Numbered from the stretch's first letter, positions 39,220-63,115 are shown. The stretch: 64,000 nucleotides of DNA from an uncultured Enterobacteriaceae bacterium (GCA_964396405.1 CAYNFK010000006.1:7971-71970), one strand, 5' to 3'. The notes: generated by a model from the sequence alone, not told the origin. Numbers and translations: made by a program.

Positions 39220-39240
39220 AGAACGATCTAGAAGCCTGAC

Positions 39241-42429: not shown

Positions 42430-42840
42430 TCATGACGGACCTCCATGGCGGACGAGGCGCGCCCGCGCGTCCTGATACGCCTGCCGCACCAGGGCCTCCA
42501 CCGCGGCCACGTCCACCTCCTCCCCCGGCCGCAGCTTCACATGCCGCATGAACCGTCCGGTGCCCTGCAGAAGGCCCCGGGGATCGTGCAGCTCGGCCCC
42601 GAGGAAGAACCCGAGGTTCCCGTGCGCCTTGAACGTGTTGACATACGCGAAAGCCACGTCCTCCACACAGGCCGTGGGCTGCCCATCGTGAAGCAGCTCG
42701 ACCACGTCGGTCCCGCAGCCGCGCACCACCTCGAACCAGGTCCGCGCGATCGCACCCAGCGCGCCAGGGCGCTCAGCCAGCCAGGCCTCCACGGCGGGGT
42801 CGCGCCGCTGGCCACCTGAGAGTCGGAAGAGCCGGCTCAT
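42430..42840 (-). CDS. DUF1801 (YdhG-like) domain protein
   Basis: Start at MSRLFRL. DPAVEAWL...FAYVNTFKAHGNLGFFLGAEL...MRHVKL is the pattern recalled for DUF1801. Confidence 0.6.
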   Translation of the reverse strand: MSRLFRLSGGQRRDPAVEAWLAERPGALGAIARTWFEVVRGCGTDVVELLHDGQPTACVEDVAFAYVNTFKAHGNLGFFLGAELHDPRGLLQGTGRFMRHVKLRPGEEVDVAAVEALVRQAYQDARARLVRHGGPS

Positions 42841-43093
42841 GGGGTCTCCCCTGGCTCGACCGCCCCACAGCAGGCCCTGTGCATCACGCCGCACCTCGCT
42901 GGAGCCCAAGTCTAGCCCACGACTGCACCGCAGCGGCGCACACGCTGAGGCTGACCGTGCGGCTCGTTCGTCGTCCGCGACCCGCGCGAAGCGCGCCTTG
43001 GTCCGACCTGCACGGGGCGCGCTCGAAACCGACCTCAGTCTCTCTGCGGTTTATCCGAACTCATGTGGTAGCTTTCCGCAGGATGGACCCCAG

Positions 43094-45409: not shown

Positions 45410-45426
45410 TCCCGAGGCCCCTGACC

Positions 45427-46257: not shown

Positions 46258-46322
46258 TCCCGCGACGGTGAGCCCGCGCTGGGGCGTCCCGACGCAGGCC
46301 CACTCGACCTACGCGCTACCGA

Positions 46323-47234: not shown

Positions 47235-47429
47235 ACTACCTCATGCGAGGCACCCGTGGGAGACGGCGAAGGCCACACCGTTGGCGCGTCGTCTCGGGTC
47301 CGAAAAATGTCGACGGACCGAGGTGCCGATCACGGTACCGTAGTCCGGCGCCACCCCGTGTGGATCTTGGCCGCGCGACCGCGTGATGGGCGACGACGAG
47401 GCGCGAAGCGCGTGCGCCGCCGCCCCTGC

Positions 47430-49499
47430 TCACCGGCTGAGGTCGGCCGCACGGGTGACCAGCTCCGCCAGCTCGGCCGTCTCCTTGCCGCCCTGCGCCG
47501 CGAGCGACGACGACCACGCGCGCAGGTCCTGCCAGGCGATGCGCTCGGCCAGCGGCCCACCCCGCAGCTTCTCGGTGAACGCCGCCACGGTGACGGCGAG
47601 CCGAATGCCGCGGGGCGCATTCGCCAAGGAAGGTGCCGGGTGAGACACCGACATCGGCCACGCGTGCTCGCTGGCGGGAGCGTCGGCGCCGGGTGCCTTC
47701 CACCGCAGGCGCACCGTGCCCAGGCTGGGCGCGCCGGGCCCCGTGAGCGACACCTCGTAGACGGCCGTCACGTGGTGGCCCAGGCCGATCTCCCCGGCGT
47801 CCACAGCGTCGTTGCGGAAGTCCCGGTCGGCGATGGCTCGGTTCTCGTAGCCGAGCAGCCGGTACCAGCTCACCGCCGACGGATCCCAGTCCACCTGGAT
47901 CTTCACGTCGCGGGCCAGCACCTCGGCCGTTGCCGCGAACCGCTCCACGAACACCCGCTGCGCCTCGTCCTGGCTGTCCAGGTAGACGTACTGGCCGTCC
48001 CCCTCGTCGGCGAGGCGCTCCATCATCGTGTCGCGGTAGTTGCCATCCCCTACGCCCACCGTGGTGAGGGCGATGCCCTGCTTCGCGTAGTAGCGAATGG
48101 ACTCCACCAGCGGGCCGTGGGTGGTCGCGCCCACGTTGGCGTCGCCATCGGACAGTAGGATGACGCGGTGCGTGCCCGACTGCCGCAGACGCGACTCGGC
48201 CAGCGTGTAGGCCGCCTGAATGCCCGCCCCCATGGCCGTGCTGCCGCCCGCACGCAGGTCTTCGATCGCGCGGAGGATCTGCGACCGACCCTCGATGCCG
48301 GTCGGCTGGAGCACGACGCCCGCGCTCCCCGCGTAGACCACGATCGCCACGGTGTCGCCATCGGAGAGCTGCTCCACCAGCATCCGGAGCCCCGCCTGCA
48401 CCATGTCGATCTTGTCGGCGGACTGCATCGAGCCCGAGGTGTCGACCAGGAACGTGAGATGAACGGGCGGGCGGGACCCGGAAGGTCGGCGCCCTTGCAC
48501 ACCCACCCGCACCAGTCGGGTGTTGGGGTCCCACGGCGTGACCACCGCCTCAGTGACCACCTCGAAGGGTCGCGAGGCCGGCGGCGACGGGTCGCTGTAG
48601 GTGAACCAGTTCAGCGCTTCCTCGGTGCGAACGGCGGCCGCGGGCGGGAGGTAGCCCTCGCGCAGCTTGCGCCGCACGATGGTCCAGGAGCCGGTGTCCA
48701 CATCCGCGGCAAAGGTCGACACGGGATCGTCGGCCGTGATCGTGCGGCCGTGAACGCCCGGATGGGTGTAGGTCTCCGTGTTGACCACGTTCGGACGCTC
48801 ACCCGCCGTGACCCTCGGCGACACACTCACCGCCTCCTGGTAGCTCCGGCCGCCGGGGATGCGACGGAGAAAGTCTGCCGTGAGCACCGTGCCCACGTCG
48901 TTCGCATGGTTCGCGTCCGACCCGCTGGCGACGCTTGGATCGGGGGTGGGATCCTCGACGTAGCCGAGCGACACGAGCTCGCGCATGACGTCCTTCTCTA
49001 CGGGGGCGTCCCCGTCGACGTCTGCGACGGACACGACGGCATCGGACTCCTCGGCGGGCGCGGGAGCCGCAGCCGCGCTCGCGCCGCGGATGATGATGAT
49101 GGTGCGGTCTGGGGCGGTCGACTCCAACTCCCGCGGGGGAACCGCGCTGGCGGACGGGGGGGTCTCCACCGGCCACCGCTCGCGCGCCGCCCGGTCCGGA
49201 GCCCTCTCGCCCTCGACCTCCGCCCGGAGCACTGAGTTTTCTTCCAACACCGCGTAGGTGGGCACTCCGACGGCCACCACCAAAGCGGCGGCCGCTACAA
49301 GGCCCCGACCCCAGGCCCGCCCGGTCGTGCGGGGCAGGCCGAGCGCACGCGGTGCCTCCACCGGCTCCAGCACGGCCGGCACGAAGCGGGCGTCGAAAGC
49401 GGCGCGGAGCTCGGGGTCCTGGTCGATGGCGGCGGCGAGCTCATCGGACAGGTCACCTTCCTCGGGGTTCCAGGCGCGGAGCTGTTCCAGGCGGGTCAT
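47430..49499 (-). CDS. anti-sigma factor fused to a periplasmic vWA (YfbK-like) domain
   Basis: ATGA-coupled to the ECF sigma gene and carries a single TM segment. vWA MIDAS motif HLTFLVDTSGSM and LLSDGDANVG. Confidence 0.85.
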   Translation of the reverse strand: MTRLEQLRAWNPEEGDLSDELAAAIDQDPELRAAFDARFVPAVLEPVEAPRALGLPRTTGRAWGRGLVAAAALVVAVGVPTYAVLEENSVLRAEVEGERAPDRAARERWPVETPPSASAVPPRELESTAPDRTIIIIRGASAAAAPAPAEESDAVVSVADVDGDAPVEKDVMRELVSLGYVEDPTPDPSVASGSDANHANDVGTVLTADFLRRIPGGRSYQEAVSVSPRVTAGERPNVVNTETYTHPGVHGRTITADDPVSTFAADVDTGSWTIVRRKLREGYLPPAAAVRTEEALNWFTYSDPSPPASRPFEVVTEAVVTPWDPNTRLVRVGVQGRRPSGSRPPVHLTFLVDTSGSMQSADKIDMVQAGLRMLVEQLSDGDTVAIVVYAGSAGVVLQPTGIEGRSQILRAIEDLRAGGSTAMGAGIQAAYTLAESRLRQSGTHRVILLSDGDANVGATTHGPLVESIRYYAKQGIALTTVGVGDGNYRDTMMERLADEGDGQYVYLDSQDEAQRVFVERFAATAEVLARDVKIQVDWDPSAVSWYRLLGYENRAIADRDFRNDAVDAGEIGLGHHVTAVYEVSLTGPGAPSLGTVRLRWKAPGADAPASEHAWPMSVSHPAPSLANAPRGIRLAVTVAAFTEKLRGGPLAERIAWQDLRAWSSSLAAQGGKETAELAELVTRAADLSR

Positions 49500-50041
49500 G
49501 CGAGCACCCCTTCTTCGGTAGCGAGGTCATGAAGCAGATCGCGAAGCGCGAGGCGACCGCGCGCGACACGGGACGCGACGGTGCCGATGGGTGCGTCGAG
49601 CACCGTCGCCGCCTCGGCAAAGGAGAGACCTTGGCCGTCCACCAGAAGGACGGCCTGACGCTGCGGCTCAGGGAGCGTGGCCAGCGCAGCGTCCAAGCCT
49701 TCGCGAAGTCGGCTTCGCTCCAGCGCCGCCGCCGGCCCGTCCCGAACGGCGCTGAACGCCAGCACCTTGCCGTCGTCGGACACCTCGTGGTGATGGTGGG
49801 CGCGCGCACGGTCGTTGAGGAAGGTGGTGTAGATGATGCGGTGCATCCAGCCCCGAAACGCCGACGGCTCGTCCAGCTGGTGGCGGCGCGCGAGCGCCTT
49901 CGACACGGCGCTCTGCACCAGGTCGTCCGCCGCCGCGGCGTCGCGTTCGAGGCGGAAGGCGTAGCGCCACAGGGAAGGCAGGGCGTCCTGGAGCTGCTGC
50001 TCCAAGTCCTGGCGTGGTCGTGTGAGAGGCCAGACTGCCAT
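49496..50041 (-). CDS. ECF-type RNA polymerase sigma factor
   Basis: Region 2 (DLVQSAVSKAL..FRGWMHRIIYTTFLN) and region 4 (LPEPQRQAVLLVDGQGLSFAEAATVLDAPIGTVASRVARGR). Confidence 0.9.
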   Translation of the reverse strand: MAVWPLTRPRQDLEQQLQDALPSLWRYAFRLERDAAAADDLVQSAVSKALARRHQLDEPSAFRGWMHRIIYTTFLNDRARAHHHHEVSDDGKVLAFSAVRDGPAAALERSRLREGLDAALATLPEPQRQAVLLVDGQGLSFAEAATVLDAPIGTVASRVARGRLALRDLLHDLATEEGVLA

Positions 50042-51749: not shown

Positions 51750-52043
51750 GCCCATTCCATGGGGGTGTCCGACGTCCCCCAGAACGGGGAACACGCGCCA
51801 CCGCCTCCCTGCGGCGAGGCCGCGACCTGCTGCGACGGACGCCCCGGTCTGGACGCGTCCCGCCACGAACGCGACATCGCGACCGGTTCGCGTAATCCAG
51901 CCTCACTCCAACTGTATCGAGGTACCCGACTCTGGCCCCTCAATCCCTGGACCTAATGTCCAAGCGTGGTGCTGCGGTTTTTCCGATTGTATTTTCGTCG
52001 CGTGTCCTGTGGAATACCCGCAGCCTGTTGCGGAGAACCACCG

Positions 52044-53009
52044 ATGCTGTCCACCTGGGTGATGCTCACGTTGTTCGGTTGCCAGGAGTACGGGCTGGGC
52101 GCCTCGCTGGACGACGCCCCGGAGGTCGCCGACACCGAAGGCCTGGGGGACCCGACGTCGCCCCCGGCCACCTCGGACGACACCGATCCCGCTGCGCCCG
52201 CACCGGACGCGCTCCCCGATCCCGGGGGGACCGACACGCCCGCCGACACCGATCCGGCCGACCTCCCGCCGACCCCGGACGAAGCCGACACGTCCGCGGA
52301 GCCTGCAGAGTCCGACGTTCCCCTCGACACCGACGTCCCGCCCGACACCGAGGTCCCCATTGACCCCGGCGAAGACACCGACGTCCCGGGCACCTCCGAC
52401 GACACCGACCCTCCCGCCCCTCCACCCGACTGCGACCTCGACCCCCACCAGATCCTTCAGGCCACGGTCACCTTTCCCGCACGCCGCGACTGTGCGTGGA
52501 GCCAGGGAACCAACCTGGGTCGAAAGAACGAGCACAACCAGGCGATCGCCACCGACGAGGAGGTCGTGCAACTGCCGCCCGGCGCGACCCTGTGCACGCT
52601 CGCCCTCCGCTCCACCACCGACGACCTGGAGTTCGACGACCACATGACCTTGGCCCTCGACGACATCGTGCTCGTCGGCGGCGGCTCCGGCTACGCCAAG
52701 TCCCAGCTCCCCGTGGTGGGCGGGCTCTCGCGCTTCGACTGGTCCCTGCTGCGCGGTCAGCCCTTCGTGGGCCGCTACGACCCCTACTTCTGCCTTGGCG
52801 GGAGCGTCTCGCCCTGCGAGGTCCCGCCCACCGAGCAGCACGGTGCGCTGGCGATGGAGCCGCTGGGGCCGGACCTGGACCTGTTGGTGGACGCGGTGCG
52901 TGATCGCCAGGATCTGCCGTTTCGTCTGCATGTTCTCGGGGACGACAACGACGGGGACTGTCGGCACACGGACACGGTGTTGGAGGTGACGGTCGGGTAT
53001 GTGGAGTAG
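52044..53009 (+). CDS. lipoprotein with an acidic Pro/Asp/Thr linker and a C-terminal domain of unknown function
   Basis: Start at MLSTWVMLTLFGC within ORF 51966..53009. Confidence 0.65.
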   Translation: MLSTWVMLTLFGCQEYGLGASLDDAPEVADTEGLGDPTSPPATSDDTDPAAPAPDALPDPGGTDTPADTDPADLPPTPDEADTSAEPAESDVPLDTDVPPDTEVPIDPGEDTDVPGTSDDTDPPAPPPDCDLDPHQILQATVTFPARRDCAWSQGTNLGRKNEHNQAIATDEEVVQLPPGATLCTLALRSTTDDLEFDDHMTLALDDIVLVGGGSGYAKSQLPVVGGLSRFDWSLLRGQPFVGRYDPYFCLGGSVSPCEVPPTEQHGALAMEPLGPDLDLLVDAVRDRQDLPFRLHVLGDDNDGDCRHTDTVLEVTVGYVE

Positions 53010-53065
53010 CCCTGCCTCCGCGGACGACATCGGTGGTAGCGGCATTGTCGTGGGGGTCGGAGGGG

Positions 53066-53111
53066 CTGTTCCCGGCCCGAGGGGGCCGGATCCGGCCCGG
53101 AGCGGGAACAG
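53066..53111. terminator. nested GC-rich hairpin between convergent genes (candidate bidirectional terminator and left edge of the accessory region)
   Basis: CTGTTCCCG...CGGGAACAG forms a stem that encloses the perfect palindrome GGCCGGATCCGGCC. Confidence 0.35.
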
Positions 53112-53118
53112 TTCCCGG

Positions 53119-56100
53119 TCACCTGGGCACGCATTGGACGGCCACGCGATCGATGTCGTCCAGCCGGCCTGGGGTCGTCCTCCTCATCACCTGCAGCAGT
53201 GGCTCGACCTGGCGCTCACGGACGACGAGCGAGACGAGGTGGGACGCCACCGCCGCTGGCGTGGCGATCCCACCAGGGAGTTGGTCGTCTAGACGCGGGC
53301 CCGGCAGGTCCCTCACGAGCCGACGCATCTGTGCGTCGCTGTAGAGGTCGAGGAGCAGCCGTTCGAGTTCTTTAACCCCGCCTTCGGGGACGGTCCGGAC
53401 GCCCTCCCGGATGACCTTCAGAACCTCCGACGGTCCCGGTGGACGCCACGTCCCATGGCTGGCCCTCTCCGTGCCCACCATGCGCTTCCAGGGGACAGCG
53501 TGCCAGTCGGGGAACATGCGCTCCAACCTTGCAAGCTCGTCGACCGCGCGCCACCCGAGCGTACGCGCGAGCTCCACGAGCGTGTCGAGGCACCGATCAC
53601 GCTCGTTGCGCAGCGCGTCTTCGGGACCGAACCAATGCGACCCGTCACGGCGAGGATCCTCGCGCGGCGGGTAGTGTCGCGCGAGGAGCTCCGCGAATCG
53701 GCCGACCACCACGGCATCCGACCACGACGCCGACAAGTTCGGCTCGTACACGTGCGTATGGGCCCCCAATCGTTCGAGGACGGCGCCGGCCGCCCCGGGG
53801 TGCTCGTCGACGAACTCGAGCACGCGGGCTGCGTCCTCGGCGCTGCCCCGCAGCAGGGCGAATGCGGAGACGACCGCCATCTGGAAGTCTGGACTGTCGG
53901 GCTGGCCGGCCAGCGGAGGCAACCGTGCCTGGGCCCACGCTCGCGCGGTCGCGACGCCGCGGCCGAGCAATCCCGGCAAGAGGATCTCCGCCTGCTTCGG
54001 ATCGGATGTCTCCACCAGAGCCTCCGTCAAGACGCGCTCGACGGCGGGCCCCCAGCGGCGCTCGAAGGCGACCAGCGGAAGGTGACCCGACTCGCCGCGC
54101 AGCATCGCGACCCAGGTCCGGGCGACGGCTTCGGGAACCCGGTCCACGAGGAACTCCAGCAGCTCACTGTGTTCCTTGTGCTCGCGGAACATACTGCCGT
54201 GATCGACCACGGCCGGTGCCCAGGTCGCGAGCTTGTCGTCGTGGAGTTCGCCGAGTTTCCCGCTGCTCCAAAGCAGGCGCATCGCCCCCAAGCCCATGAA
54301 CGCGTGCGCCACCTCGCGGTGGTTCTGCCTGCCCAGCCATGCCTCGGTGCGTGGGGTGTCGCGGAGCAAGAATGACCGTGCCGCGTCCACGACCCGGCTC
54401 TGCTCGTCGCCGTCGAGGGTTCCCCAGCCGAAGGACTTGTCCGGGGAGACGTGCCAGTCGACGTCCCAGCCGCGGTCCGGGGGCGCCCTGTGGAGATGGT
54501 GCAGCAACGACCACCACTTGTCGGATTCGCCGTCGTGAGCGGCCGCCAGCGCGCTTCGAAGCCGGACCGCAAGCGGCGGATCGAGCTTCGGTGGCTCGCG
54601 CTCCGGTTGCGCCCACCGCGTGGCAAGCTCGGCGTCGCGACGCGCGATCTCCGCGACGATCTGGTCTGGCGACTCCCCCAGCTTACCGAGCTCGACCCCA
54701 ACCTCTCGAAGCTCCGGGTGCTTCGCTGCTCCATGCAGCAGTCGCTCCACGGACGCTGCGTCACCTCGCGGACTCCACCTGATGAGGGCGTCTGCCAGCC
54801 ACGTGCGCTCGCGCGGATCGGTCGCCGTGTCGAGGAGCGTCCACGCGGGGTCGACCAGCTCGGCAGCGACTACGCCGAGGCGCTCGGGCACTCGGTAGGC
54901 GAGCGTGCTCGGGCCGCCCTCCGGGCCCGCCATGGCGAACAGCGCTCGAACGAAGGCGGGAGTCCGAGCACGCAGACGGAGCTCATCGACGAGCTCGGCC
55001 GACGGAGAGAACGACACGTAACTGTCGAGGTGCGCGCGAAGGATCTCCTTCAGGATCGCAGGCTGGTCGAGCAGCCCGAGTGCTCGTGCCCGCTCGGCGA
55101 GCGCCTCCAGCACCTGAGATGCCATCGGAAAGCGGTCGACTCCGCCGGAGCCGAGCCGCGACTTGCCCGCAGCCCAGCGCAGAGCACGCGGAAGAATCCC
55201 GGGCTCGATCGCCCTGGCCATCTCGAACAGGAAGCCCTGATACGCTCCGAAGTGCATGCGATGATGCGGCGAGCGGAGGTGCTCGAACAGCGCCTCGGAC
55301 GACAGGTGATCCGGCCAAAGCACCCGCAGTGCAAGCCCGAGCAGGTTGTCGTCCGGGTCGAGGTTGCGACCGAAAGCGAGAACGTCCTTGCAGAGCGCAA
55401 CGACTTCGCGGGTGCCGTCATCGTTGAGGAGGTCGTCGTCGACCATCTCTCGCAGGGCGCGTAGCGCATGGACGGCCGCCATGCGGTTCGCATCTGCCGA
55501 CCAGGGCTCTCGGACGATGGGAGCCAAGGCGGAGACACACTCGACGGCGCCCGTCGCGCCTGCGAGTCGGGCCGCCGACCGGACCGCTACGGGGCGGTGG
55601 GCTGTCGGATCGAGCCACCGGATGATCTGGCGGCCGATGCCGCGATGCACGAGGTTACCCAGCCGATCGTCGAGTTCGAGGAGGTCATCCGCGAACTCTC
55701 CACGCTCGAGGCCGCAGAGCCACGCTTCGACGAGGCGTTCCCGATCCTGATCTGAGCGAGACCCGGGATCGGCGTCGATGAGCGCGCGCGGGTCCTTGCT
55801 GGCCAGCCAGGACCAGGCATCCGGGTACAGGTCCGCGATCCACCCGACCGTGCCGCGAAGCGTGGCCACGGTTCGCCTCTCGGGATCGTGCGGGTGGACG
55901 AGCAGGGCATCCAGCGTCGCCGTGTCGGGCCGGTAGGTCGCCAGATGTCGCGCGGCGAGGAACTCCTCGTAGGCCCTGCTCGACCAGACGACGACATCTC
56001 CGAAAGGCGTGAAAGGTCCCACCGCGACCGTCTCGCGAAGGGCAGCGAGCGTGGCCTGCACCCGAGAGGGTCCCTCCTCGGAACCCTCCCACGGACCGAC

Positions 56101-57039
56101 GAGGTCTTCGAGCCGAGTCGTGATGTCCTCGGGAGCCTCCACGCTTCCGGACGCGACGAATGGGCGCCGTGAGAAGGTGGTCGCAGCGGCGATCCGACCG
56201 GCGAGCGCCATCCGCTGATGCTCGGTCAACGTACGCTTGTCGCGAGCGTCCTCGCCGTGCCCGCGGAACACGGCCACGAGGTGGTGCTCGAACAGAGACG
56301 CCCGGGAGGTCGGCAGCGCGCCGAATCCCTTCTCGACGTCGAGAAGCATGCGCAGGGTCAGCGGACGGGAGGCCAGCGGCTCGGCACGGTGGCGATCTAC
56401 CCAATCGAGGAGCGCGCCGGCATCCCACGACCTTTCGGCAGCGGCAAGTGCCACGTCCTCGCGCTCCAGCGGCAGCAGCGACAGCACGGTCGCTCCTCCG
56501 TCTCCGGCGATGCCGGAGAGCACGCGGGAGAGCCCGCTCGTCCAGGCGTGCGCCCGACCAGCCGTGCGGATCCGGAGTCTCGCGAGATGGTCTTGCGAGG
56601 ATTCCACGAACGCCTGGATCTCCGCGGCGAGCCGGCGGAGCTCGCCCGGGAACTCATCGAGGCCGTCGAGGAACAACTCCAGGACTCCGCTCGCAGAGCG
56701 CCACTGTTCGACGTCGGGGTGCGCGAACCACCGCGCCGCGAGTCCTGAGGGGGACTGAAGTGCGAGGTTGATCCGGCAGGTCGAGGCTCCCGCAGCTTCG
56801 CGGCTATCGGCCCAGGTCGCCAGAGCACGGCTCTTCCCGATCCCGGCCTCGCCGAGCAACACCACCACACGGGCGTCGTGCCAGTGGTCGAGGGTCCTTG
56901 CGGTCGCGGGACGTCGCTCTCCACGGCGCGAACTGTCGAGATCGCCGGCCGCGATCGGCGGCAGGAAGCCAGCCACGGGCACGAACGTGCCGACCGGCGC
57001 AGCGTGTCGGGGGCGGGGGAGGTGGAGTTCGGCCATCAC
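53119..57039 (-). CDS. NACHT-type STAND NTPase with a long helical/HEAT-like repeat region and a C-terminal effector-associated (EAD1-like) domain
   Basis: Walker A VVLLGEAGIGKSRAL and Walker B LELFLDGLDEF. About 1000 aa of helical sequence follows. The last ~90 aa align with the N-terminus of the 58662..59417 protein. Confidence 0.85.
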   Translation of the reverse strand: MMAELHLPRPRHAAPVGTFVPVAGFLPPIAAGDLDSSRRGERRPATARTLDHWHDARVVVLLGEAGIGKSRALATWADSREAAGASTCRINLALQSPSGLAARWFAHPDVEQWRSASGVLELFLDGLDEFPGELRRLAAEIQAFVESSQDHLARLRIRTAGRAHAWTSGLSRVLSGIAGDGGATVLSLLPLEREDVALAAAERSWDAGALLDWVDRHRAEPLASRPLTLRMLLDVEKGFGALPTSRASLFEHHLVAVFRGHGEDARDKRTLTEHQRMALAGRIAAATTFSRRPFVASGSVEAPEDITTRLEDLVGPWEGSEEGPSRVQATLAALRETVAVGPFTPFGDVVVWSSRAYEEFLAARHLATYRPDTATLDALLVHPHDPERRTVATLRGTVGWIADLYPDAWSWLASKDPRALIDADPGSRSDQDRERLVEAWLCGLERGEFADDLLELDDRLGNLVHRGIGRQIIRWLDPTAHRPVAVRSAARLAGATGAVECVSALAPIVREPWSADANRMAAVHALRALREMVDDDLLNDDGTREVVALCKDVLAFGRNLDPDDNLLGLALRVLWPDHLSSEALFEHLRSPHHRMHFGAYQGFLFEMARAIEPGILPRALRWAAGKSRLGSGGVDRFPMASQVLEALAERARALGLLDQPAILKEILRAHLDSYVSFSPSAELVDELRLRARTPAFVRALFAMAGPEGGPSTLAYRVPERLGVVAAELVDPAWTLLDTATDPRERTWLADALIRWSPRGDAASVERLLHGAAKHPELREVGVELGKLGESPDQIVAEIARRDAELATRWAQPEREPPKLDPPLAVRLRSALAAAHDGESDKWWSLLHHLHRAPPDRGWDVDWHVSPDKSFGWGTLDGDEQSRVVDAARSFLLRDTPRTEAWLGRQNHREVAHAFMGLGAMRLLWSSGKLGELHDDKLATWAPAVVDHGSMFREHKEHSELLEFLVDRVPEAVARTWVAMLRGESGHLPLVAFERRWGPAVERVLTEALVETSDPKQAEILLPGLLGRGVATARAWAQARLPPLAGQPDSPDFQMAVVSAFALLRGSAEDAARVLEFVDEHPGAAGAVLERLGAHTHVYEPNLSASWSDAVVVGRFAELLARHYPPREDPRRDGSHWFGPEDALRNERDRCLDTLVELARTLGWRAVDELARLERMFPDWHAVPWKRMVGTERASHGTWRPPGPSEVLKVIREGVRTVPEGGVKELERLLLDLYSDAQMRRLVRDLPGPRLDDQLPGGIATPAAVASHLVSLVVRERQVEPLLQVMRRTTPGRLDDIDRVAVQCVPR

Positions 57040-58586
57040 AAGGGCTCCGCGGGAGGGTCACCGAAGCAGAGAAACGGTATTGCACCCTCGCCTGCCGCCA
57101 GAGCAAGGCGGCGACAGGTGTCCCATGCGACCCCGGGCCGGACACCCCTCCCCGCGAGGCGCGCCCAGAAGGCCTCCAGCCCACGGACATCCGAAAGGGG
57201 CGCGAGGACCACGACGGGAACATCGCGACTGAGCAGGCAGGCGGCTTGACGGAGGGCGGGCGGCGCGGTCCCGTCGATGCGGAGCACGAAGACCTGAACG
57301 CCGGCGCGACGGACGTAGAGTTCGATCTGGTCGAACACAAGGTCCAGGTCGCCAGAGCGCAGTCGGCCCTCTTGGTCCAGGGACGCCGAGACCTGCACGG
57401 CCCACGGCGGAGCGTCGACGGGTCTGAAGTCCGCGACGACCCTCGTCTCTGTGACGTTCGAAGGAACGAGCAGCGGGGGCGAACCACCGATCACATCGAG
57501 CGAACCCGGCCCCGAACCGACGGGCCGAGCCCCGTCCAGCCACCGTCGCGGGTACCGGACGGAACGGCGGACCTTGACCTGCTCCCACGGCGCAGCGAGC
57601 AGCTCCACGGCGGCTGGATGGGTGGTGCCCACCATGCGGACTTCGACCGGATGGACGATGACATCGGGGTATCCGAGGGACGTCGGCTTGGCGTTTCCCG
57701 CAGAAGCACCGGCCGTTTCCCACCGCCGGATCCCGCGATCGTCTACGCGGAATCGGTCCGGCACAAGCCCGGTCGTCACAGAGGCCACCGCCGGAAGATC
57801 GAGGAGCACGCCGCGAGCCTCCCGACAGCGGTGTCCGGTGAGCCAAGCCCCCCGGCACAACCAGGTCGCCAGCCCGTCGGGTGGGGGAAGACTCCCGTCC
57901 TCGCCGAGAACGGCCGTGAGGCGCGGAACGATTGGCCCGTCACCGTCCGCGAGTTCGTTCGGGAGCTTGAAGCGCTCTACGAGTTGCTCCAACGCCCCCT
58001 CCAGCAGACCAGCACCACGCAGTTCACGGATGAGGACGTCAACCAGGTCCCAGTCTGGGCTGGCTACGACGAGATCGGGGTCGTCCGCGTGGTCCTCCGA
58101 ACGGACGAGCACGGGCACCGGCACCGCGTCGAATCCCGCGACCGGGGCCGCCAGCCGCGCCACGATCGTCGCGTCCCGCCCACGGAGGTCGCGCGCCGCA
58201 AAAGCCGTCGCCCAGGGTGGCAGCAAGCTCCGGACGGACCCGGTCCCGTCCAGGACCACGTGCACGTAACGCTCGGGCTCGTGGAGCTGTCCGTCTCGGA
58301 TCCACAGGCCCTCGCCGTAGATGCCGGTGCTGCGGTCTCCAATGGCAGCGGAGTAGCGCACCGTGACGGCGACCACGACCAAGTCAGCGTCCAACATCGC
58401 GCCCCACTGCCACTCCGCGAGCGATGCCCCCGAAGGCAGGTCCCGCTCGTCCCACACGACGCGCACGTAGCGCTCGAGCTCGCGGACCAGCCACGCAACC
58501 GGCTCGTCCACGCCGCCATCGGGCGTCCGCTTGTGGGAGACGAACACCCTCCGGGATGTCGTCCCGGCGACCACCCCGTCCATCAC
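57036..58586 (-). CDS. TIR-domain protein with an unassigned ~370-aa C-terminal region
   Basis: The N-terminus RVFVSHKRTPDGGVDEPVAWLVRELERYVRVVWDERDLPSGASL...ADLVVVAVT is TIR-like. The stop overlaps the STAND gene start (ATGA). Confidence 0.75.
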   Translation of the reverse strand: MMDGVVAGTTSRRVFVSHKRTPDGGVDEPVAWLVRELERYVRVVWDERDLPSGASLAEWQWGAMLDADLVVVAVTVRYSAAIGDRSTGIYGEGLWIRDGQLHEPERYVHVVLDGTGSVRSLLPPWATAFAARDLRGRDATIVARLAAPVAGFDAVPVPVLVRSEDHADDPDLVVASPDWDLVDVLIRELRGAGLLEGALEQLVERFKLPNELADGDGPIVPRLTAVLGEDGSLPPPDGLATWLCRGAWLTGHRCREARGVLLDLPAVASVTTGLVPDRFRVDDRGIRRWETAGASAGNAKPTSLGYPDVIVHPVEVRMVGTTHPAAVELLAAPWEQVKVRRSVRYPRRWLDGARPVGSGPGSLDVIGGSPPLLVPSNVTETRVVADFRPVDAPPWAVQVSASLDQEGRLRSGDLDLVFDQIELYVRRAGVQVFVLRIDGTAPPALRQAACLLSRDVPVVVLAPLSDVRGLEAFWARLAGRGVRPGVAWDTCRRLALAAGEGAIPFLCFGDPPAEPL

Positions 58587-58627
58587 GCACCCGCTCGGCG
58601 GGCGAGATATTCGACTTCGACCCGGTC

Positions 58628-58637
58628 GTCACGTGAC
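58628..58637. promoter_or_regulatory. perfect 10-bp palindrome GTCACGTGAC in the 75-bp divergent TIR/TIR intergenic region
   Basis: Read directly from the sequence. Confidence 0.25.
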
Positions 58638-58661
58638 TAGGAGAATGGAGCCCGGAGACGC

Positions 58662-59417
58662 ATGCAGCGAGCCGACGTCCGCCAGCTCTCCGACTTGCTC
58701 CGCACGCTCCTCGACGAGCACAAGCTGCGCAGGATCGCGCGCGAGCTTCCCGAAGGCGACGAACTCGCCCACTGGCTTCCAGGGGCCGGCGTGTCGTTCG
58801 TCCAGCTCGCCGATGCCCTGGCCGACGAGGCGGTCCGCCGCGGGCGCGCCCGCGCGCTCTTGGCGCTCCTCCGGAACCAGCTCCCTGGCCGTGCTGCCGA
58901 GATCGATGCGGTCGTGGCGAGGTTCGATATCGCCCAAGTGACCGAGAGCGCGCCTCGAACTACCGAGGAGCCCGAGACCTGGGACGTGTTCTTGGCGCAT
59001 CCGAAGGAGCTGGAGAGCCGTGCGGCGCGTCTGTACGACGCGCTCGTCGCTCAGCCCCACGGCCGGCGCGTGTTCCTCGACAAGCGCTGCATCGCACCCG
59101 GTGACGCGTGGCTGGACCGGATCCGCGGTGCGCTTCGCCGCACCCGAGTCTTCGCCGTCCTCATCGGTCCCACGAGCGACACTGCGTGGTTCCAGTCCGA
59201 GGAGATCCTCACGGCGATCGAGGTCACGCGCCGCGAACCCGACGACCACAAGATCGTCCCCGTCCTCGTCGACGGTGCCGAGCTCTCGTTCCCCCTGCTG
59301 CAACGGCAAGCGATCGGCTGGAGTGACAGTGCCGACGCCTCCGCCGTGGTCTCCGGCCTCGTTCGAGCCGTTGCCAACGTGGAGGCCAAGGCGGCGAGCC
59401 GTCCGGGGCCGGTGTGA
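58662..59417 (+). CDS. EAD1-like helical domain + TIR domain protein
   Basis: TIR region: WDVFLAHPKELESRAARLYDALVAQPHGRRVFLDKRCIAPGDAWLDRIRGAL..VFAVLIGP..AWFQSEEI. The N-terminal 90 aa is helical with ELP..LPG..PGR landmarks. Confidence 0.8.
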   Translation: MQRADVRQLSDLLRTLLDEHKLRRIARELPEGDELAHWLPGAGVSFVQLADALADEAVRRGRARALLALLRNQLPGRAAEIDAVVARFDIAQVTESAPRTTEEPETWDVFLAHPKELESRAARLYDALVAQPHGRRVFLDKRCIAPGDAWLDRIRGALRRTRVFAVLIGPTSDTAWFQSEEILTAIEVTRREPDDHKIVPVLVDGAELSFPLLQRQAIGWSDSADASAVVSGLVRAVANVEAKAASRPGPV

Positions 59418-59434
59418 CCGCGAGGCCCGCGGTC
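59416..59434. terminator. hairpin GACCGCG-AGGCC-CGCGGTC between the convergent TIR gene and integrase gene
   Basis: Read directly from the sequence: a 7-bp perfect stem. Confidence 0.35.
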
Positions 59435-59454
59435 GCGCCCCCGCGCGATGCGCT

Positions 59455-60588
59455 CTACGGCGACGCTTCGGACGAGCGGGATTCCTCCCCGTGCACCTCG
59501 GTGCGGATCTCCGGGAACGCCGCCAGCGCAGCCTTCGCCACGGCCGCCTCCCGATCCGCCTCGGTCACCTGCCGGTAGAACCGGAGCATCACCACGACCG
59601 AGTGCCCCGTCAGGCTCGCCGCCGTCGCCGGGTCCACACCCGCCCGCAGCATTCGATCCACCACCATCCGCCGAAGCCCGTGCGGCGTGAACGCCTTCAC
59701 GCCCGCTCGGCGACACGCGCGGGCCAGCCGCGACCGCACTGCCTGATCCCGTGGCAGTCCCAGCGTGGGGAATGCTGGCGATTCGTCCGACCCCGCGCGC
59801 GCCAGGACTTCATGGCCAATCACCTCGGGGAGCGGGAACCTGCGGGTGCCCGTCTTGCCCGTCAGACGAAGCTGGACGCGATTCCCGTCCACCTCGATGT
59901 CGCACCGGCGGAGGTTCGCGATCTCCGCGACTCGCGCCCCCGTGACCGCGAGAAGTTGGATCGCAAGGTGCGACTCGCCGTTGGTGGCACCAAGAACCCT
60001 GGCCACGTCGACCGGGGTGGGCGTGTGGTGGTTCAAGACGTAGCCCTCCACCTTCACCACCACCCTGGGGAACGGACGCGCAGGCACCATCACGCCTTGG
60101 CTGCCCCACCGCCACGCCATCGACCACACCCTGAACTCTTGGACGACAACTCTGGGTGAGGCACGCTCACGAAGTCTGTGGTCGCGGTACCGCTCTGCGA
60201 TGTCTCGGTCCATCCGGTGAACCTCAACTTCGCGGAGCCACGCCACAAGGTGCCGGCAGGCCTTCTCGTAGTGGTCCACCGTGCGGGGGGACAGGTCCGC
60301 ACGCTCTGCTTGCCGCGCGTACCAGCGGTCGAACAGCTCCCCCAGCGTCGTCACGGGACCCCTGGCGACGGTGGACTCCGGGGCTGGGAGGCCTCGCACC
60401 ACCCTGTCCGCGAGCATCACCTGCGCCTGCTCACGCGTGGCCCAACCCGACCACACCAGATCCCGGATCCCCTTGCGACGCGCCCGCCAATACCACTGCG
60501 TTCCCGCCGCGCTCTCTCGCGACCGGTTCATCGGTGACGCACGAATGGGACCAATCTCGACGGACTTCGGCCGCAACGCTTTGGTCAT
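59455..60588 (-). CDS. int: tyrosine-type site-specific integrase
   Basis: Start at MTKALRP within ORF 59455..60747. Catalytic landmarks are LLAVTGARVAEI (Arg), FTPHGLRRMVV (H-x-x-R) and TGHSVVVMLRFYRQV (His, Tyr). Confidence 0.9.
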   Translation of the reverse strand: MTKALRPKSVEIGPIRASPMNRSRESAAGTQWYWRARRKGIRDLVWSGWATREQAQVMLADRVVRGLPAPESTVARGPVTTLGELFDRWYARQAERADLSPRTVDHYEKACRHLVAWLREVEVHRMDRDIAERYRDHRLRERASPRVVVQEFRVWSMAWRWGSQGVMVPARPFPRVVVKVEGYVLNHHTPTPVDVARVLGATNGESHLAIQLLAVTGARVAEIANLRRCDIEVDGNRVQLRLTGKTGTRRFPLPEVIGHEVLARAGSDESPAFPTLGLPRDQAVRSRLARACRRAGVKAFTPHGLRRMVVDRMLRAGVDPATAASLTGHSVVVMLRFYRQVTEADREAAVAKAALAAFPEIRTEVHGEESRSSEASP

Positions 60589-61121
60589 CGCGCACCCCGC
60601 GCCAGGCCTGGACCGCCCAACGGACGGAGCGGAACCGCACCTGTGGCTCTGACGCGCCCCGTCCGCACCTTCGCCTCGGTGGCATCTGCCAAAGCCTCCA
60701 GGTCGATGCGAAGGGCTCGAAGCCAGTCGCCGAAGGGAGCCATCCACGCGCGGCCAATTCTCCGCGCCGTCTCTGGCCGAACCGCTCGAACGTCCCCCTG
60801 GCGGAGACCGAAAACGTCGGCCACGTCCTCAGTGCTGCACAGCGTTTCGGGCGTGGCGAACAGCGCAGCCCGTGCCTGAAGGCGGCGCAGCCGGTCGAGT
60901 TGAACGCGAGGGGCGGCCGGCACAACGTCGTCTTCGTCTCCACCGAACACCGGCGAGCACGGAGCACGGCGGCCCGGCCGGTCGAGGCGCAGGCGCCGTA
61001 CGGCTCGGAGGTCCGACCCAACGGGCGGCACGCGCCAGACGTAGACGACCCGACCGACCCTTAGGACCCCAAGATGTCGCTGAGGTCCGCTCTGGAAGGC
61101 GAAGCAGGTGGTGGTGCTCAT
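60585..61121 (-). CDS. hypothetical protein with an excisionase/MerR-like HTH segment
   Basis: Start at MSTTTCF. It has ATGA overlaps with both the upstream gene and the integrase. The LCSTEDVADVFGLRQGDVRAVRPETARR segment is HTH-like. Confidence 0.5.
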   Translation of the reverse strand: MSTTTCFAFQSGPQRHLGVLRVGRVVYVWRVPPVGSDLRAVRRLRLDRPGRRAPCSPVFGGDEDDVVPAAPRVQLDRLRRLQARAALFATPETLCSTEDVADVFGLRQGDVRAVRPETARRIGRAWMAPFGDWLRALRIDLEALADATEAKVRTGRVRATGAVPLRPLGGPGLARGAR

Positions 61122-61903
61122 GGGCGCACCCACCCTGGACAAAGCCGCTCGACTCGATCGACGAAGAGATGAAACTGGCGACGCTCACGATCTTGCTCGC
61201 GTTTCACGCTGCCTAGCGTCCGCCGGAGTTGAAGTACTGCGTCCTCAGAGGCGGCCAGCTTCCGTCTGACCCCCGCCAACTCGCTCTCAAGCTCCGACAC
61301 ACGCCCACGGGACAGATCCGCGAGCGACGGGAAGCCGCTCAACGGGACGCGCCTTGGGGCGGCAGGCGGCGCAGTTCGCGCGGGGACGCGCCGCTGCTCT
61401 ACGGCAGGCGGGTCGTACGCGCGGATCATGTCGCGCTGCGCTGCGTCGTCGTCAGGACTGAAGATCTCGTGCTTGCTAGGCAGGCGAAACTTCGCTCCGG
61501 CGATCGGACGACCGCTGCGATCCCATAGGCGCACGCGACTGTGGGTGTAGCGCCCCTCACACTCCCACACGATGGACGCGATTTCGATGATGAGCCAGCA
61601 GATCGGCGTGTCGATCTCATCGACCGGCACACGAAGGCGCTGCCGCTCCTTGCCGTCGAAGCCATAGTTGGAGATCGTCACGCTGGCGGTAGGGCCTTCG
61701 TGAACCTGCTGCATCACCAATTCGACCAACAGCGATGGCTTCCACGCGCCGGGGCGGGTGCCGTGAGACCGGGTAGGACCACGGGTGGTGGGAGGCGTGG
61801 TGGAGGGCGTGGTGGCGGGTGTGGTGGCGGGTGTGGTGGCGGGTGTGGTGGGAGCCATGGTGGCGCTCGTGGTTGTGATGTGCCAGGACGTTAGAAGCCG
61901 CAC
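61118..61903 (-). CDS. hypothetical element-encoded protein with an N-terminal (TTPA)n tract
   Basis: 261-aa ORF. The start could be Met1, Met16 (61858) or Met64 (61714). The C-terminus is coiled-coil-like (ELESELAGVRRKLAASEDAVLQLRR). Confidence 0.5.
   Translation of the reverse strand: MRLLTSWHITTTSATMAPTTPATTPATTPATTPSTTPPTTRGPTRSHGTRPGAWKPSLLVELVMQQVHEGPTASVTISNYGFDGKERQRLRVPVDEIDTPICWLIIEIASIVWECEGRYTHSRVRLWDRSGRPIAGAKFRLPSKHEIFSPDDDAAQRDMIRAYDPPAVEQRRVPARTAPPAAPRRVPLSGFPSLADLSRGRVSELESELAGVRRKLAASEDAVLQLRRTLGSVKREQDRERRQFHLFVDRVERLCPGWVRP
61809..61850. repeat. 3.5 tandem copies of the 12-bp unit GTGGTGGCGGGT
   Basis: Read directly. It encodes TTPA repeats if the 61118..61903 ORF starts upstream of it. 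Confidence 0.7.
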
Positions 61904-61954
61904 TTCGAGACATTCGATGCGCCGACATCCCGATCATAATCGCAAGTTGCCATA

Positions 61955-62467
61955 ATGCCAATCAAACGAGACCGTGGACCCAGGTTCGTTCGAGCCCGTG
62001 CGGTCCGCCTGGCCACCGACCCCAACGACCCTGACCGCCTCGTGTGGCAGGACGATCATGGGCGCGCCGTCCTGATGCTGGAGATCCTCGGCCGTGTGCT
62101 GTCGCTCGCTCGACGCCGCCTCCGCCTGTCGCAGCAAGAGATGGCGCACAGGTTGCGCTGGCCTCAGTCCGTCGTCAGCAAGGTCGAGAACGGCGAGGTC
62201 CACCTGACGGTCGAGCAGCTCGACGCTTGGGTGACCGTCGTTGCCGAGGTGGGTGAAGCCGACGACGACGGCGCGACTGCAGACCTTACCCCCGGGCAGG
62301 CTTTCGACATCGCCGACGCGCTTGCCGAGGCTCTCGACGAGGAAGCCTACGAGGTTCGGTGGGGAACGGGTCGGCTGTACGACGGCGAGCGACCACTGGT
62401 GCGCGGAGCCGAGCTGGAAGCCCTGCTCCTGCGACGCTGGCCGTCGGACTACCCGCGCCTACGATAG
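61955..62467 (+). CDS. XRE/cI-like helix-turn-helix transcriptional regulator
   Basis: LRLSQQEMAHRLRWPQSVVSKVENGE. It is divergent from the hyp-xis-int operon. Confidence 0.8.
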   Translation: MPIKRDRGPRFVRARAVRLATDPNDPDRLVWQDDHGRAVLMLEILGRVLSLARRRLRLSQQEMAHRLRWPQSVVSKVENGEVHLTVEQLDAWVTVVAEVGEADDDGATADLTPGQAFDIADALAEALDEEAYEVRWGTGRLYDGERPLVRGAELEALLLRRWPSDYPRLR

Positions 62468-62611
62468 CCCAAAAGCCCGACTCGCACCGGGCCCGCGATG
62501 GCCTCCGCGCACCGCCCCAAGCGAGCCGCGACGGCAGGTCGCGCACGCAACCCGCGACGCCACCAAGGAAACAAGAGTGAGCGAACAGGCCCTTGCGTTC
62601 CCAGCCAGGCG

Positions 62612-63115
62612 CTACGCGACCAAGCCGTCACGGTAGCTGGTCCTGCCTGCGACCCTCGCCGCGGTCAACACCTGATGCCGATTGTCGGCCGCACGCAACG
62701 ACACGTGCACCCACCCAGAGTTCGGCACCCCCGGCGTGTAGAACTCCAGGATGAGCTGATCGAACGCGACGTGGTCGCGAATCCACGTGGCGACGTCGGC
62801 GTTCGCAACGCCCGTGATCTCCAGGTCGGCCGCCTCGCCGGCAAGATGCTGCGACGTCGCCGACCCCTTCACCGCCCGATTGACCGCGGGGCTTCGATAG
62901 CCACTGTTGATGTGCACCGGCCGGCCGAAGTGGACGCGAACGGGCTCAAGCACCCCAAGGCACAGTCGTTCGAGTCGACGAACCACCTCCAACGACCCGG
63001 GCCAGTTGTTGGCCCTCACGTTCGTCCGGCACAGCTCGACCAACGTGAAGTGGTTGCTCAGGCGCAGGTCCGCCCTCTGATCGAGCGCGGAGTGGATCTG
63101 ATCATCGGTCAGCAT
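62612..63115 (-). CDS. peptidase M15A (zinc D-Ala-D-Ala carboxypeptidase / endolysin-like)
   Basis: INSGYRSPAVNRAVKGSATSQHLAGEAADL (SxHxxGxAxD motif) and WVHVS. Confidence 0.8.
   Translation of the reverse strand: MLTDDQIHSALDQRADLRLSNHFTLVELCRTNVRANNWPGSLEVVRRLERLCLGVLEPVRVHFGRPVHINSGYRSPAVNRAVKGSATSQHLAGEAADLEITGVANADVATWIRDHVAFDQLILEFYTPGVPNSGWVHVSLRAADNRHQVLTAARVAGRTSYRDGLVA

Follow-up and report, generated by a model that had tools for sequence, protein, structure and literature searches.

The window analysed here, a stretch of DNA of 64,000 nucleotides, carries an NLR-like NTPase gene next to two genes that the earlier note took for TIR proteins, and the question it raises is how an ATPase of this kind, which has no fused effector, would be connected to the enzymes encoded beside it. 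The earlier note read the locus as a three-gene, double-TIR system with effectors supplied in trans. Three open reading frames were found where this reading placed them, with a coding-type GC3 of 0.80–0.85, and the identical trio of genes was called independently on two public contigs:

53119..57036, minus strand: NACHT-clade STAND NTPase, 1305 aa from ATG; an identical product is predicted on a public contig; GC3 0.82
57036..58583, minus strand: orphan protein ('TIR1'), 515 aa from ATG, from translation and gene calls
58584..58661, no strand: divergent intergenic region between the orphan gene and TIR2, 75–78 bp by sequence
58662..59417, plus strand: adaptor-TIR effector 'TIR2', 251 aa; gene calls TIR_2; GC3 0.85

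The sizes needed slight correction, since the NTPase had been given as 1306 aa and both minus-strand proteins are counted here from ATG. The stop codon of the orphan gene does overlap the start codon of the NTPase gene as described, but not as ATGA: the junction reads GTGATG, so that TGA and ATG share 1 nt at the ATG start chosen by the gene callers; a GTG start would instead give a 4-nt overlap, GTGA. TIR2 is transcribed divergently across the short intergenic region, as claimed, and both promoters presumably lie within it. No sigma-70 consensus was matched in this region, a result that is uninformative at a genome G+C of 70%.

From its N-terminus, the NTPase has a short extension, the NACHT module, and a long sensor-like C-terminal region, and it ends in an adaptor. 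Its nucleotide-binding motifs were read from the translation:

56830..56853, minus strand: Walker A, GEAGIGKS, residues 62–69
56653..56676, minus strand: Walker B, LFLDGLDE, with the NACHT signature D[GAS]hDE, residues 121–128

The NTPase thus carries both the GxxxxGK[ST] Walker A and the D[GAS]hDE Walker B of the NACHT clade (signature as defined in bioRxiv 10.1101/2022.07.19.500537), and ca. 61 aa precede the P-loop, in agreement with the ca. 60 aa claimed. In a six-sequence family alignment, G62, E63, A64, G65, G67, K68, and S69 of Walker A and D124, G125, D127, and E128 of Walker B were invariant. Pfam NACHT (PF05729) reached 11.4 bits, below its cut-off of 26.7, and covered the P-loop region alone, and a family search matched no repeat family in the ca. 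1000 aa that the earlier note described as helical repeats. Five homologues showed 42–44% identity with the NTPase, one of them an Archangium NACHT domain-containing protein.

The NCBIfam models matched by the NTPase are those of two NACHT antiphage proteins, EruA (E 5e-27) and HyoA (E 1e-21), whose names we guess to stand for Erebus and Hypnos. The match was confined to profile positions 9–552, and the scores of 94.5 and 76 bits were ca. 10-fold below the equivalog cut-offs of 1000 bits (NF058535) and 1200 bits (NF058534), respectively. A distant, though significant, similarity to EruA and HyoA extends over the first ca. 550–800 residues, with E 5e-27 in the case of the window protein and values reaching 4e-84 among intermediate homologues. 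The NTPase resembles bNACHT proteins and Avs10 (Erebus/Hypnos/bNACHT64; PMC13581612), a family with demonstrated antiphage members, in its NACHT Walker motifs, its size class (ca. 1300–1450 aa), and its short N-terminus; in contrast, the sensor specificity of Avs10 for the major capsid protein is non-transferable to it. No model of PADLOC-DB 2.0.0 (Avs, bNACHT, Thoeris, and others) matched the NTPase at E ≤ 1.

Part of the double-TIR claim holds, for TIR2:

58986..59327, plus strand: TIR domain of TIR2, residues 109–222; Pfam TIR_2 E 1.2e-13, 52 bits against a cut-off of 28
59199-59201, plus strand: candidate catalytic Glu180 of TIR2, from alignment to 4lzp

In an alignment to the Brucella TIR protein 4lzp, E180 (within WFQSE) falls on the Glu of WPARE, presumably the catalytic Glu of bacterial TIR NADases. 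An above-threshold TIR domain together with this conserved Glu makes TIR2 a putative TIR NADase effector. A TIR effector with a conserved Glu is shared with Thoeris, TIR-STING, and TIR-NLR systems, with NAD+ cleavage or signal production as the output to be expected. Unlike Thoeris, however, the locus has no ThsA-like signal receiver, and its ThsB and ThcB4 matches have E values of 0.01–0.06; unlike TIR-NLR fusions, the TIR domain would be delivered to the NACHT protein by an adaptor and is not fused to it.

The NTPase and TIR2 each carry one copy of the adaptor:

53134..53382, minus strand: effector-associated (Death-like) adaptor at the C-terminus of the NTPase, ca. residues 1219–1301; BLASTP, domain HMM 95.5 bits
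58674..58925, plus strand: effector-associated (Death-like) adaptor at the N-terminus of TIR2, ca. residues 5–88; domain HMM 93.8 bits

The two copies are homologous, as had been proposed, with 35% identity over 81 aa (BLASTP, E 6e-7), and a profile HMM search of the 64-kb window detected exactly these two copies of the domain, which is ca. 85 aa in size. AlphaFold2 modelled residues 1–92 of TIR2 as a bundle of six helices (pLDDT 87.5, pTM 0.79). The best Foldseek matches of this model in the PDB were the caspase-9/Apaf-1 CARD, the ASC PYD, and the ankyrin-G Death domain (TM 0.51–0.57, all E > 1); these matches are statistically non-significant and suggestive of a CARD/PYD/Death-like fold. No Pfam EAD family matched the adaptor at threshold (EAD7 reached 12.7 bits on the NTPase against a cut-off of 32), and the best single-member E values were 0.003 for EAD7 and 0.001 for EAD1. 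In the family alignment, the adaptor was C-terminal in all five close NTPase homologues.

Wherever a related locus has enough flanking sequence, the adaptor pair is found again, with a varying effector:

Window and L020: TIR partner adjacent to the NTPase (domain HMM)
L002, L003, and L023: PNP_UDP_1 partner with an N-terminal adaptor, adjacent to the NTPase (domain HMM)
L021: TRADD-like_N partner ending in an adaptor, adjacent to a paralogous NTPase
L022: decayed partner, a frameshifted adaptor remnant upstream of the NTPase homologue

The NTPase paralogue of L021 (1518 aa; hhalign probability 99.9 and 26% identity to the window NTPase) also ends in an adaptor. Effectors are thus swapped between loci, and since the partners vary while the adaptor is kept, the conserved unit is two genes, a sensor-adaptor and an adaptor-effector. 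This recurrence supports, at the level of sequence, the core idea of the earlier note, a STAND sensor protein without a fused effector whose terminal adaptor would be matched by an adaptor-tagged effector in trans. The three-gene system did not stand: the trio does not co-occur elsewhere, which the earlier note had itself named as grounds for refutation, the orphan is absent from the related loci, and the pair alone recurs.

The same recurrence effectively refutes the reading that the genes are chance neighbours sharing a coincidental or generic helical segment. The adaptor is short, lies below Pfam thresholds, and has a non-significant fold match, as such a segment might; but partner adaptors score 60–120 bits at seven independent loci, always beside an adaptor-bearing NTPase, the pairwise E value in the window is 6e-7, and the 64-kb window holds no further copies. 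We give this reading hardly any credence. The pairing has limits among the homologues: the L004/L005 locus has no adaptor partner on its contig, which counts against the main reading given below, and in the distant relatives L006–L019 the domain HMM found neither a C-terminal adaptor nor an adaptor-tagged neighbour.

The novelty of the architecture had been overstated. STAND/NACHT cores coupled by EADs to TIR and PNPase effectors have been published (Kaur, Burroughs, Iyer, Aravind; eLife 2020, PMC7159879; eLife 2021, PMC8195603), and a survey of bNACHT proteins (Kibby et al.; bioRxiv 10.1101/2022.07.19.500537) reported that effectors and adaptors can lie at the very C-terminus. In the Lysobacter gasdermin system, a CARD-like domain is C-terminal in an NLR-like protein and N-terminal in its partner (Wein et al., PMC10312443). 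As in EAD systems, a small, non-enzymatic, all-alpha helical domain (as in the EAD1/6/7 group) is located on the terminus of the core NTPase, with a second copy on the adjacent effector. TIR and PNPase effectors, a TRADD-N partner, and the displacement of effectors between related loci are also common to both; multicellular bacteria, myxobacteria among them, are enriched in EAD systems, and homotypic Death-like coupling has been proposed for them. The window locus differs in its adaptor, a divergent family that resembles EAD7 and EAD1 weakly and scores under every Pfam EAD threshold; in the position of this adaptor, C-terminal on an active NACHT protein and after the sensor region, whereas described STAND/iSTAND proteins mostly carry it N-terminally; in the cognate copies, which are usually closer to each other but here are no closer than non-cognate ones; and in the extra orphan gene. 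The locus is a variant of the described bacterial EAD immune design, not a new kind of system.

The gasdermin-type system (PMC10312443) and LypABC (PMC13236601) have an NLR-like STAND ATPase with a C-terminal Death-fold and a partner with an N-terminal one, and their terminal effectors are swapped between homologous operons. The adaptor role has been demonstrated experimentally there, and the positions of the adaptors match those in the window, with the fold similarity to CARD/PYD described above (TM 0.51–0.57, Foldseek E > 1). On the other hand, the adaptor-tagged partner there is a protease cleaving a downstream effector (gasdermin, a nuclease or a phospholipase, for example), whereas here the adaptor is fused directly to a TIR or PNP effector; the NTPase belongs to another clade and the adaptor to another sequence family. 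A Pfam search detected no peptidase domain in the three window proteins; the systems described by Wein et al. have, besides the tagged protease, a second protease and a cleavable effector. In Apaf-1/caspase-9 and NLRP1/NLRC4, a STAND oligomer clusters a six-helix Death-fold that recruits a partner of the same fold, and NLRP1 carries its CARD at the C-terminus. In contrast to this animal CARD coupling, a TIR or PNP protein, not a caspase, would be recruited here, and the fold match is suggestive of resemblance, not of an evolutionary link.

We hold, with reasonable though far from full confidence, that the locus encodes a bacterial immune module of the NACHT (NLR-like) type, EAD-coupled and borne on a mobile element, with a two-gene functional core. 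In the mechanism that we infer, the NTPase would act both as the sensor and as the switch: once it recognised a ligand derived from an invader, it would bind NTP and oligomerise, its C-terminal adaptors would be clustered, and these would engage the matching adaptor at the N-terminus of TIR2, which is encoded separately. The TIR domains of TIR2 would then be brought together, or freed from sequestration, which would turn on an NADase or signal-generating activity, with abortive infection or growth arrest as the expected outcome. The NLR-like ATPase probably recruits the trans-encoded, NAD-cleaving TIR enzyme via the matching helical adaptors, and the protein delivered by the same adaptor in sister lineages would be a nucleosidase of the PNP family or a TRADD-N protein. 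In an identity matrix, cognate adaptor pairs were no closer than non-cognate ones (23–36% throughout): the cognate TIR2/NTPase adaptors showed 34% identity against 31–36% to non-cognate PNP adaptors, and the cognate pair of L003 showed 25% against 29–32%. Therefore, no specific pairing is evident from sequence.

Deletion of the C-terminal CARD from the Lysobacter NLR-like protein caused toxicity, which indicates repression rather than recruitment (PMC10312443) and counts against recruitment here. By analogy, the adaptor of the resting NTPase could be a brake that sequesters or represses TIR2 until activation frees TIR2 to self-assemble. In Lysobacter the toxicity was reversed by mutating the partner's CARD (PMC10312443), and the adaptor of the window NTPase is in the same C-terminal position as that of the NLR-like protein. 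However, the argument is one of analogy, the partner here is a TIR protein and not a protease cascade, and recruitment is the mode favoured in the EAD literature; the sequence does not discriminate between the two. We regard the brake as possible, though doubtful. EAD or Death-like coupling to trans effectors is mostly a computational prediction, and the few experimental cases are all protease cascades. The family described here is a natural experiment, in which one sensor scaffold and one adaptor would deliver TIR, PNP nucleosidase, or TRADD-N depending on the lineage; it could address whether the adaptor alone specifies the effector, whether effectors are interchangeable, and whether an adaptor in the C-terminal position acts by recruitment or by repression.

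The other part of the double-TIR claim, that the orphan is a TIR protein, depends on a sub-threshold match:

58347..58547, minus strand: TIR-like segment of the orphan, residues 14–80 in GTG-start numbering; Pfam TIR_2 E 3.7e-5

With 24.6 bits, the Pfam TIR_2 match fell short of the cut-off (28 bits), and it was confined to profile positions 1–64 of 122. The same stretch was weakly matched by ThsB and bSEFIR of PADLOC and by NCBIfam ThcB4; for both the orphan and TIR2, PADLOC-DB 2.0.0 gave weak generic TIR matches alone. The orphan showed no significant similarity to TIR2, the domain HMM detected no adaptor in it, and the ca. 430 aa beyond the TIR-like segment belong to no recognisable family. 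Its AlphaFold2 model was unusable (pLDDT 31). In searches of 5.8e9 clusters and a full HMMER scan of 1.84e9 representatives, the sole homologue was the 98%-identical sister-strain copy; a second match in the HMMER scan was rejected as a translated-repeat artefact. The orphan protein was absent from all related loci, and its gene occupies the slot held by the adaptor-PNP gene in relatives. The orphan is most likely a lineage-specific add-on.

The locus could instead be a true three-component system, in which TIR2 alone is insufficient and the orphan is the primary partner of the NTPase, either a divergent TIR co-effector that assembles with TIR2 or a sensor or inhibitor subunit. The overlap of the orphan stop with the NTPase start suggests coupled translation and fixed stoichiometry, and the orphan shares with the adaptor-PNP genes of L003 and L023 not only its slot but also the 1-nt junction, their upstream stop overlapping the NTPase start as in the window. 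The orphan is also intact in the second strain, with a pN/pS of 0.38 that derives from 16 differences alone (8 synonymous and 8 non-synonymous), and three independent TIR-type models weakly match its N-terminal stretch. Nevertheless, the orphan has no adaptor domain, its sub-threshold TIR match ends before the would-be catalytic Glu region, it has no homologue in related loci or in the 1.84e9 representatives beyond the 98% copy, and relatives evidently function without it, so that we consider this alternative unlikely. With a two-gene core, the orphan, translationally coupled to the NTPase, would most likely have an accessory role, as a co-effector or a regulator, and bind the NTPase without an adaptor; this role is a guess. 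It is very unlikely that the orphan, as a highly divergent TIR joined to ca. 430 aa of no recognisable family and coupled in translation to the NACHT protein, is a new kind of NLR partner in a three-part system without precedent, whether in a hetero-TIR assembly with TIR2 or as a built-in component that guards or inhibits the sensor; if true, the hetero-TIR assembly would be a two-TIR composite enzyme or signal generator.

The surroundings of the module show that it is carried on a mobile block:

52979..53118, no strand: left edge of the mobile block; sister-strain identity stops ca. 130 nt past the NTPase stop
59455..60747, minus strand: tyrosine integrase; Pfam Phage_integrase 57 bits, PHROG phrog_1 integrase 136 bits

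The integrase is directly beside TIR2, which confirms the description of the locus as cargo next to an integrase. On this right-hand side of the module, the integrase is accompanied by an HTH regulator and an endolysin. By blastn, L020 was 98.65% identical to window positions 52979–59569 and unrelated outside them, with the junctions read directly; because the sister strain has a different flank, the block is mobile. All three genes are intact in the second strain (pN/pS 0.38–0.63).

Since the module is at the edge of a prophage-like element, it might serve the element itself, in superinfection exclusion, addiction, or lysis control, or act in myxobacterial social conflict or programmed cell death, and not against phages. 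A related CARD-NLR-like system has been co-opted by a gene transfer agent for lysis (PMC13236601), and a myxobacterium-like host accords with the enrichment of EAD systems in multicellular bacteria. However, the closest named relatives of the NTPase are antiphage proteins, and a UG9 defence reverse transcriptase 12 kb from the module suggests that the region is defence-rich. Defence genes on prophages are common. We judge a non-antiphage role quite unlikely, and the family, read as an immune module, gains a prophage-borne NLR-like member in a myxobacterium-like host with an orphan gene in the effector slot.

The host genome looks myxobacterial. The fold energy of the repeat region at the left edge of the block was not better than that of shuffled sequences (z −0.5); the repeat is a G+C-rich inverted repeat at ca. 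53060–53118.

The G+C content of the window is ca. 70%, and a frame-specific GC3 filter resolved three clean coding regions within the interval of interest:
53119-57039, minus strand, NTPase of the NACHT STAND type (GC3 0.82)
57036-58586, minus strand, 515-aa protein (GC3 0.80)
58662-59417, plus strand, TIR2, an adaptor-TIR protein (GC3 0.85)
The same three products are called from ATG starts on two public contigs (1305, 515, and 251 aa, respectively). Where the two minus-strand genes meet, the sequence is CCC TTG TGA TGG; therefore, the stop codon of the 515-aa gene overlaps the ATG of the NTPase gene by 1 base, or by 4 bases with a GTG start. The earlier note, whose observation of the locus was largely right with small errors, had described this junction as an ATGA overlap, which it is not. 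The divergent region of 75 bp that it placed before the 251-aa gene measured 75–78 bp.

The last ca. 85 residues of the NTPase align with the first ca. 88 residues of TIR2 (35% identity, E 6e-7), confirming that the two proteins have this effector-associated domain (EAD; hereafter, the adaptor) in common, as had been noticed from the sequence. An HMM built from eight adaptor copies detected these two, and no others, in the 64-kb window. Positions L29, G32, and R59 of the adaptor (TIR2 numbering) are invariant. Every close homologue of the NTPase also ends in the adaptor, and in three of their loci (L002, L003, and L023, the last from Archangium) the protein encoded just upstream starts with it. 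The cargo of the adaptor in these three loci is a PNP_UDP_1 nucleosidase, in contrast to TIR in the window, and the PNP partners match the PN-superfamily effector model of PADLOC (E 1e-21). In L003 and L023, the end of the PNP gene overlaps the start of the NTPase gene by 1 nt, as in the window. Additionally, L021 encodes a 1518-aa NACHT-like NTPase paralogue that matches the NTPase family (hhalign probability 99.9, 26% identity), retains Walker A and B motifs, and closes with the adaptor; beside it is a TRADD-like_N protein with the adaptor at its end too. In L022, the adaptor is left only as a frameshifted remnant beside a GT4-conflict glycosyltransferase. Of the close homologues, only that of L004/L005 has no adaptor partner on its contig, and an IS91-type gene is found upstream of it. 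The distant EruA-like relatives (L006–L019) lack both the adaptor and a tagged neighbour. Two C-terminal NTPase fragments were all that a profile search for further adaptor family members found. We regard the adaptor as real and as the principle around which the locus is organised. The proposal that effectors are coupled in trans through a homotypic adaptor was thus right, since the adaptor pair recurs across loci with TIR, PNP_UDP_1, or TRADD-like_N partners.

EADs were defined by Kaur et al. (PMC7159879, PMC8195603) as domains with one copy on the core protein and one on the adjacent effector, which can be displaced by directly fused effectors; TIR and PNPase cargos, TRADD-N partners, and STAND/NACHT cores are listed there. 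The window locus shows exactly this pattern of a core copy and an adjacent effector copy. In an experimental study, Wein et al. (PMC10312443) described a bacterial NLR-like protein with a C-terminal CARD-like domain and a partner protease with an N-terminal one, and removal of the C-terminal domain from the NLR-like protein resulted in partner-dependent toxicity. We conclude that the window locus probably works like the systems in these studies, and that the design, which had been regarded as unprecedented, has precedents. The locus resembles EAD systems in most respects compared but differs in two: its adaptor reaches no named Pfam EAD family, and cognate adaptor copies resemble each other no more than non-cognate copies do. 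The locus belongs neither to the CARD-protease systems nor to any PADLOC system.

An AlphaFold2 model of the adaptor from eight aligned sequences was a confident six-helix bundle (pLDDT 87.5, pTM 0.79). In a Foldseek search against the PDB, the top ranks were the caspase-9/Apaf-1 CARD, the PYDs of ASC2 and ASC, a CARD disk, and the ankyrin-G Death domain (TM 0.51–0.57). No match had E <1; therefore, the Death-like reading of the modelled adaptor is suggestive only. The Pfam matches of the adaptor to EAD7 and EAD1, viewed as related all-alpha EADs by Kaur et al. (PMC7159879), were below threshold.

In the NTPase, Walker A (GEAGIGKS, residues 62–69) and Walker B (LFLDGLDE, residues 121–128) are present as previously reported, and both are invariant across the family alignment. 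The Walker B sequence agrees with D[GAS]hDE, the NACHT signature defined by Kibby et al. (bioRxiv 10.1101/2022.07.19.500537), the signature residues of which are likewise invariant in the alignment. The Pfam NACHT model scored far under threshold. The first ca. 550 residues are near two NACHT antiphage proteins of NCBIfam, EruA (E 5e-27) and HyoA (E 1e-21), and intermediate homologues bridge the NTPase to them with E down to 4e-84. Its scores were ca. 10-fold under the equivalog cut-offs, and the NTPase is not a member of either. The origin of the names EruA and HyoA was absent from the literature searched; our guess is that they are linked to Erebus and Hypnos. No model in PADLOC-DB 2.0.0 matched the NTPase, and a search of the PDB with the family profile gave no meaningful sequence relative. 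The family is small, with five homologues at 42–44% identity, one of them from Archangium, followed by a tail of 1350–1500-aa proteins at 24–32% identity. A metagenome scan with the NTPase alignment gave no matches, and a genome scan yielded only distant relatives lacking the adaptor.

The locus had been read as encoding two TIR proteins. This held for TIR2, which carries a bona fide TIR_2 domain of Pfam (52 bits). In an alignment with the Brucella TIR protein 4lzp, E180 of TIR2 (motif WFQSE) falls on the Glu of WPARE, the position that we take as catalytic in bacterial TIR NADases. In the 515-aa protein, three TIR-type models touched residues ca. 10–80, all below threshold (Pfam TIR_2, 24.6 bits, cut-off 28; PADLOC ThsB and NCBIfam ThcB4, E 0.02–0.05), and the match ends ahead of the region expected to hold the catalytic Glu. 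The 515-aa protein has no adaptor detectable by the HMM and no detectable similarity to TIR2. A PDB sequence search gave nothing meaningful, and its AlphaFold2 model was unusable (pLDDT 31). A word-indexed search found only a 98%-identical copy as homologue, and the one further hit when 1.84e9 representatives were scanned in full with HMMER was a translated tandem-repeat artefact; the trio is therefore not the conserved unit that had been assumed. The gene is intact in both strains, with pN/pS of 0.38 from 16 differences, and its slot is exactly that of the adaptor-PNP gene in relatives. Collinear weak BLAST segments raised the possibility of a degenerate or decayed PNP_UDP_1 domain forming its C-terminal half. 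This was rejected: Smith-Waterman z-scores were only 1.4–2.5, the real sequence scored no better than shuffles against an HMM of three PNP domains, and the hhalign probability was 0.14%. A relationship between the TIR-like part and the middle region of adaptor-PNP proteins was rejected on the same tests.

The stretch to the right of the trio (59455-63115) is prophage-like, and the following features were found there:
within 59455-63115, tyrosine integrase (phrog_1, 136 bits)
61118-61903, 261-aa ORF that has an Asd-4-like match and contains a 12-nt tandem repeat (61785-61873)
61955-62467, HTH regulator
62612-63115, M15 endolysin-like peptidase (phrog_894, 138 bits)
The genes for the integrase, HTH regulator, and peptidase are of phage type, and the integrase bears out the placement of the locus beside such a gene. 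The sister-strain contig L020 is 98.65% identical over window 52979-59569 and turns to unrelated genes ca. 130 nt beyond the NTPase stop. Therefore, the block is mobile, and the trio occupies the edge nearest the integrase of an integrated, prophage-like element, whose right end is beyond the window. The left junction has no second copy in the window that could serve as an att-site repeat, the block showed no similarity to known phages, and consensus scans for promoters and terminators were uninformative. At the left junction (window 52979-53118, L020 6451-6590), the identity of the two strains stops within the last ca. 15 nt of the flanking ORF (51966-53009). Immediately beyond the NTPase stop, both strains keep a G+C-rich inverted repeat, the fold energy of which is no better than that of shuffles.

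Window 37000-42000 is a low-G+C patch (0.62–0.65 against ca. 0.70) and is probably a second defence island, ca. 12 kb from the trio. The genes of this patch and those following it are:
37754-39151, plus strand, CHAT-domain protein (weak SAVED_CHAT match)
39241-40854, minus strand, UG9-class defence-associated reverse transcriptase (PADLOC RT_UG9_small, 317 bits)
40986-41942, minus strand, 318-aa ORF of no assigned family
42839-45409, protein with seven MopE-type metal-binding repeats
47430-49499, vWA/YfbK protein, its start overlapping an ECF sigma factor gene (49496-50041)
The MopE repeat, vWA/YfbK, and ECF sigma genes (42839-50041) are host-type, consistent with a myxobacterial origin.

Among the related loci, the paralogue and the TRADD-like_N protein of L021 (509-6126) form a second adaptor-coupled pair, convergent to a main-family NTPase and overlapping its end. 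In L022, positions 1-1218 hold the glycosyltransferase (PF20706, 233 bits) and then the frameshifted adaptor-PNP remnant, upstream of an intact NTPase homologue; this sensor has apparently lost its effector. The Archangium-type loci L002 and L023 have downstream genes in common (LysM/GH19, SnoaL, YceI, Rieske, and CBS). The position of a YhcG/DUF1016 PDDEXK nuclease gene differs: at one locus it separates PNP from the NTPase, and at the other it follows the NTPase. A DUF1016_N fragment remains upstream in L023. The PNP protein of L023 is without the ca. 220-aa linker region found in L002 and L003. Directly downstream of the NTPase homologue of L003 (6361-8179) is what looks like a further defence system of two genes, encoding an ABC-type ATPase (AAA_15/AAA_21, 389 aa) and a protein of 218 aa.
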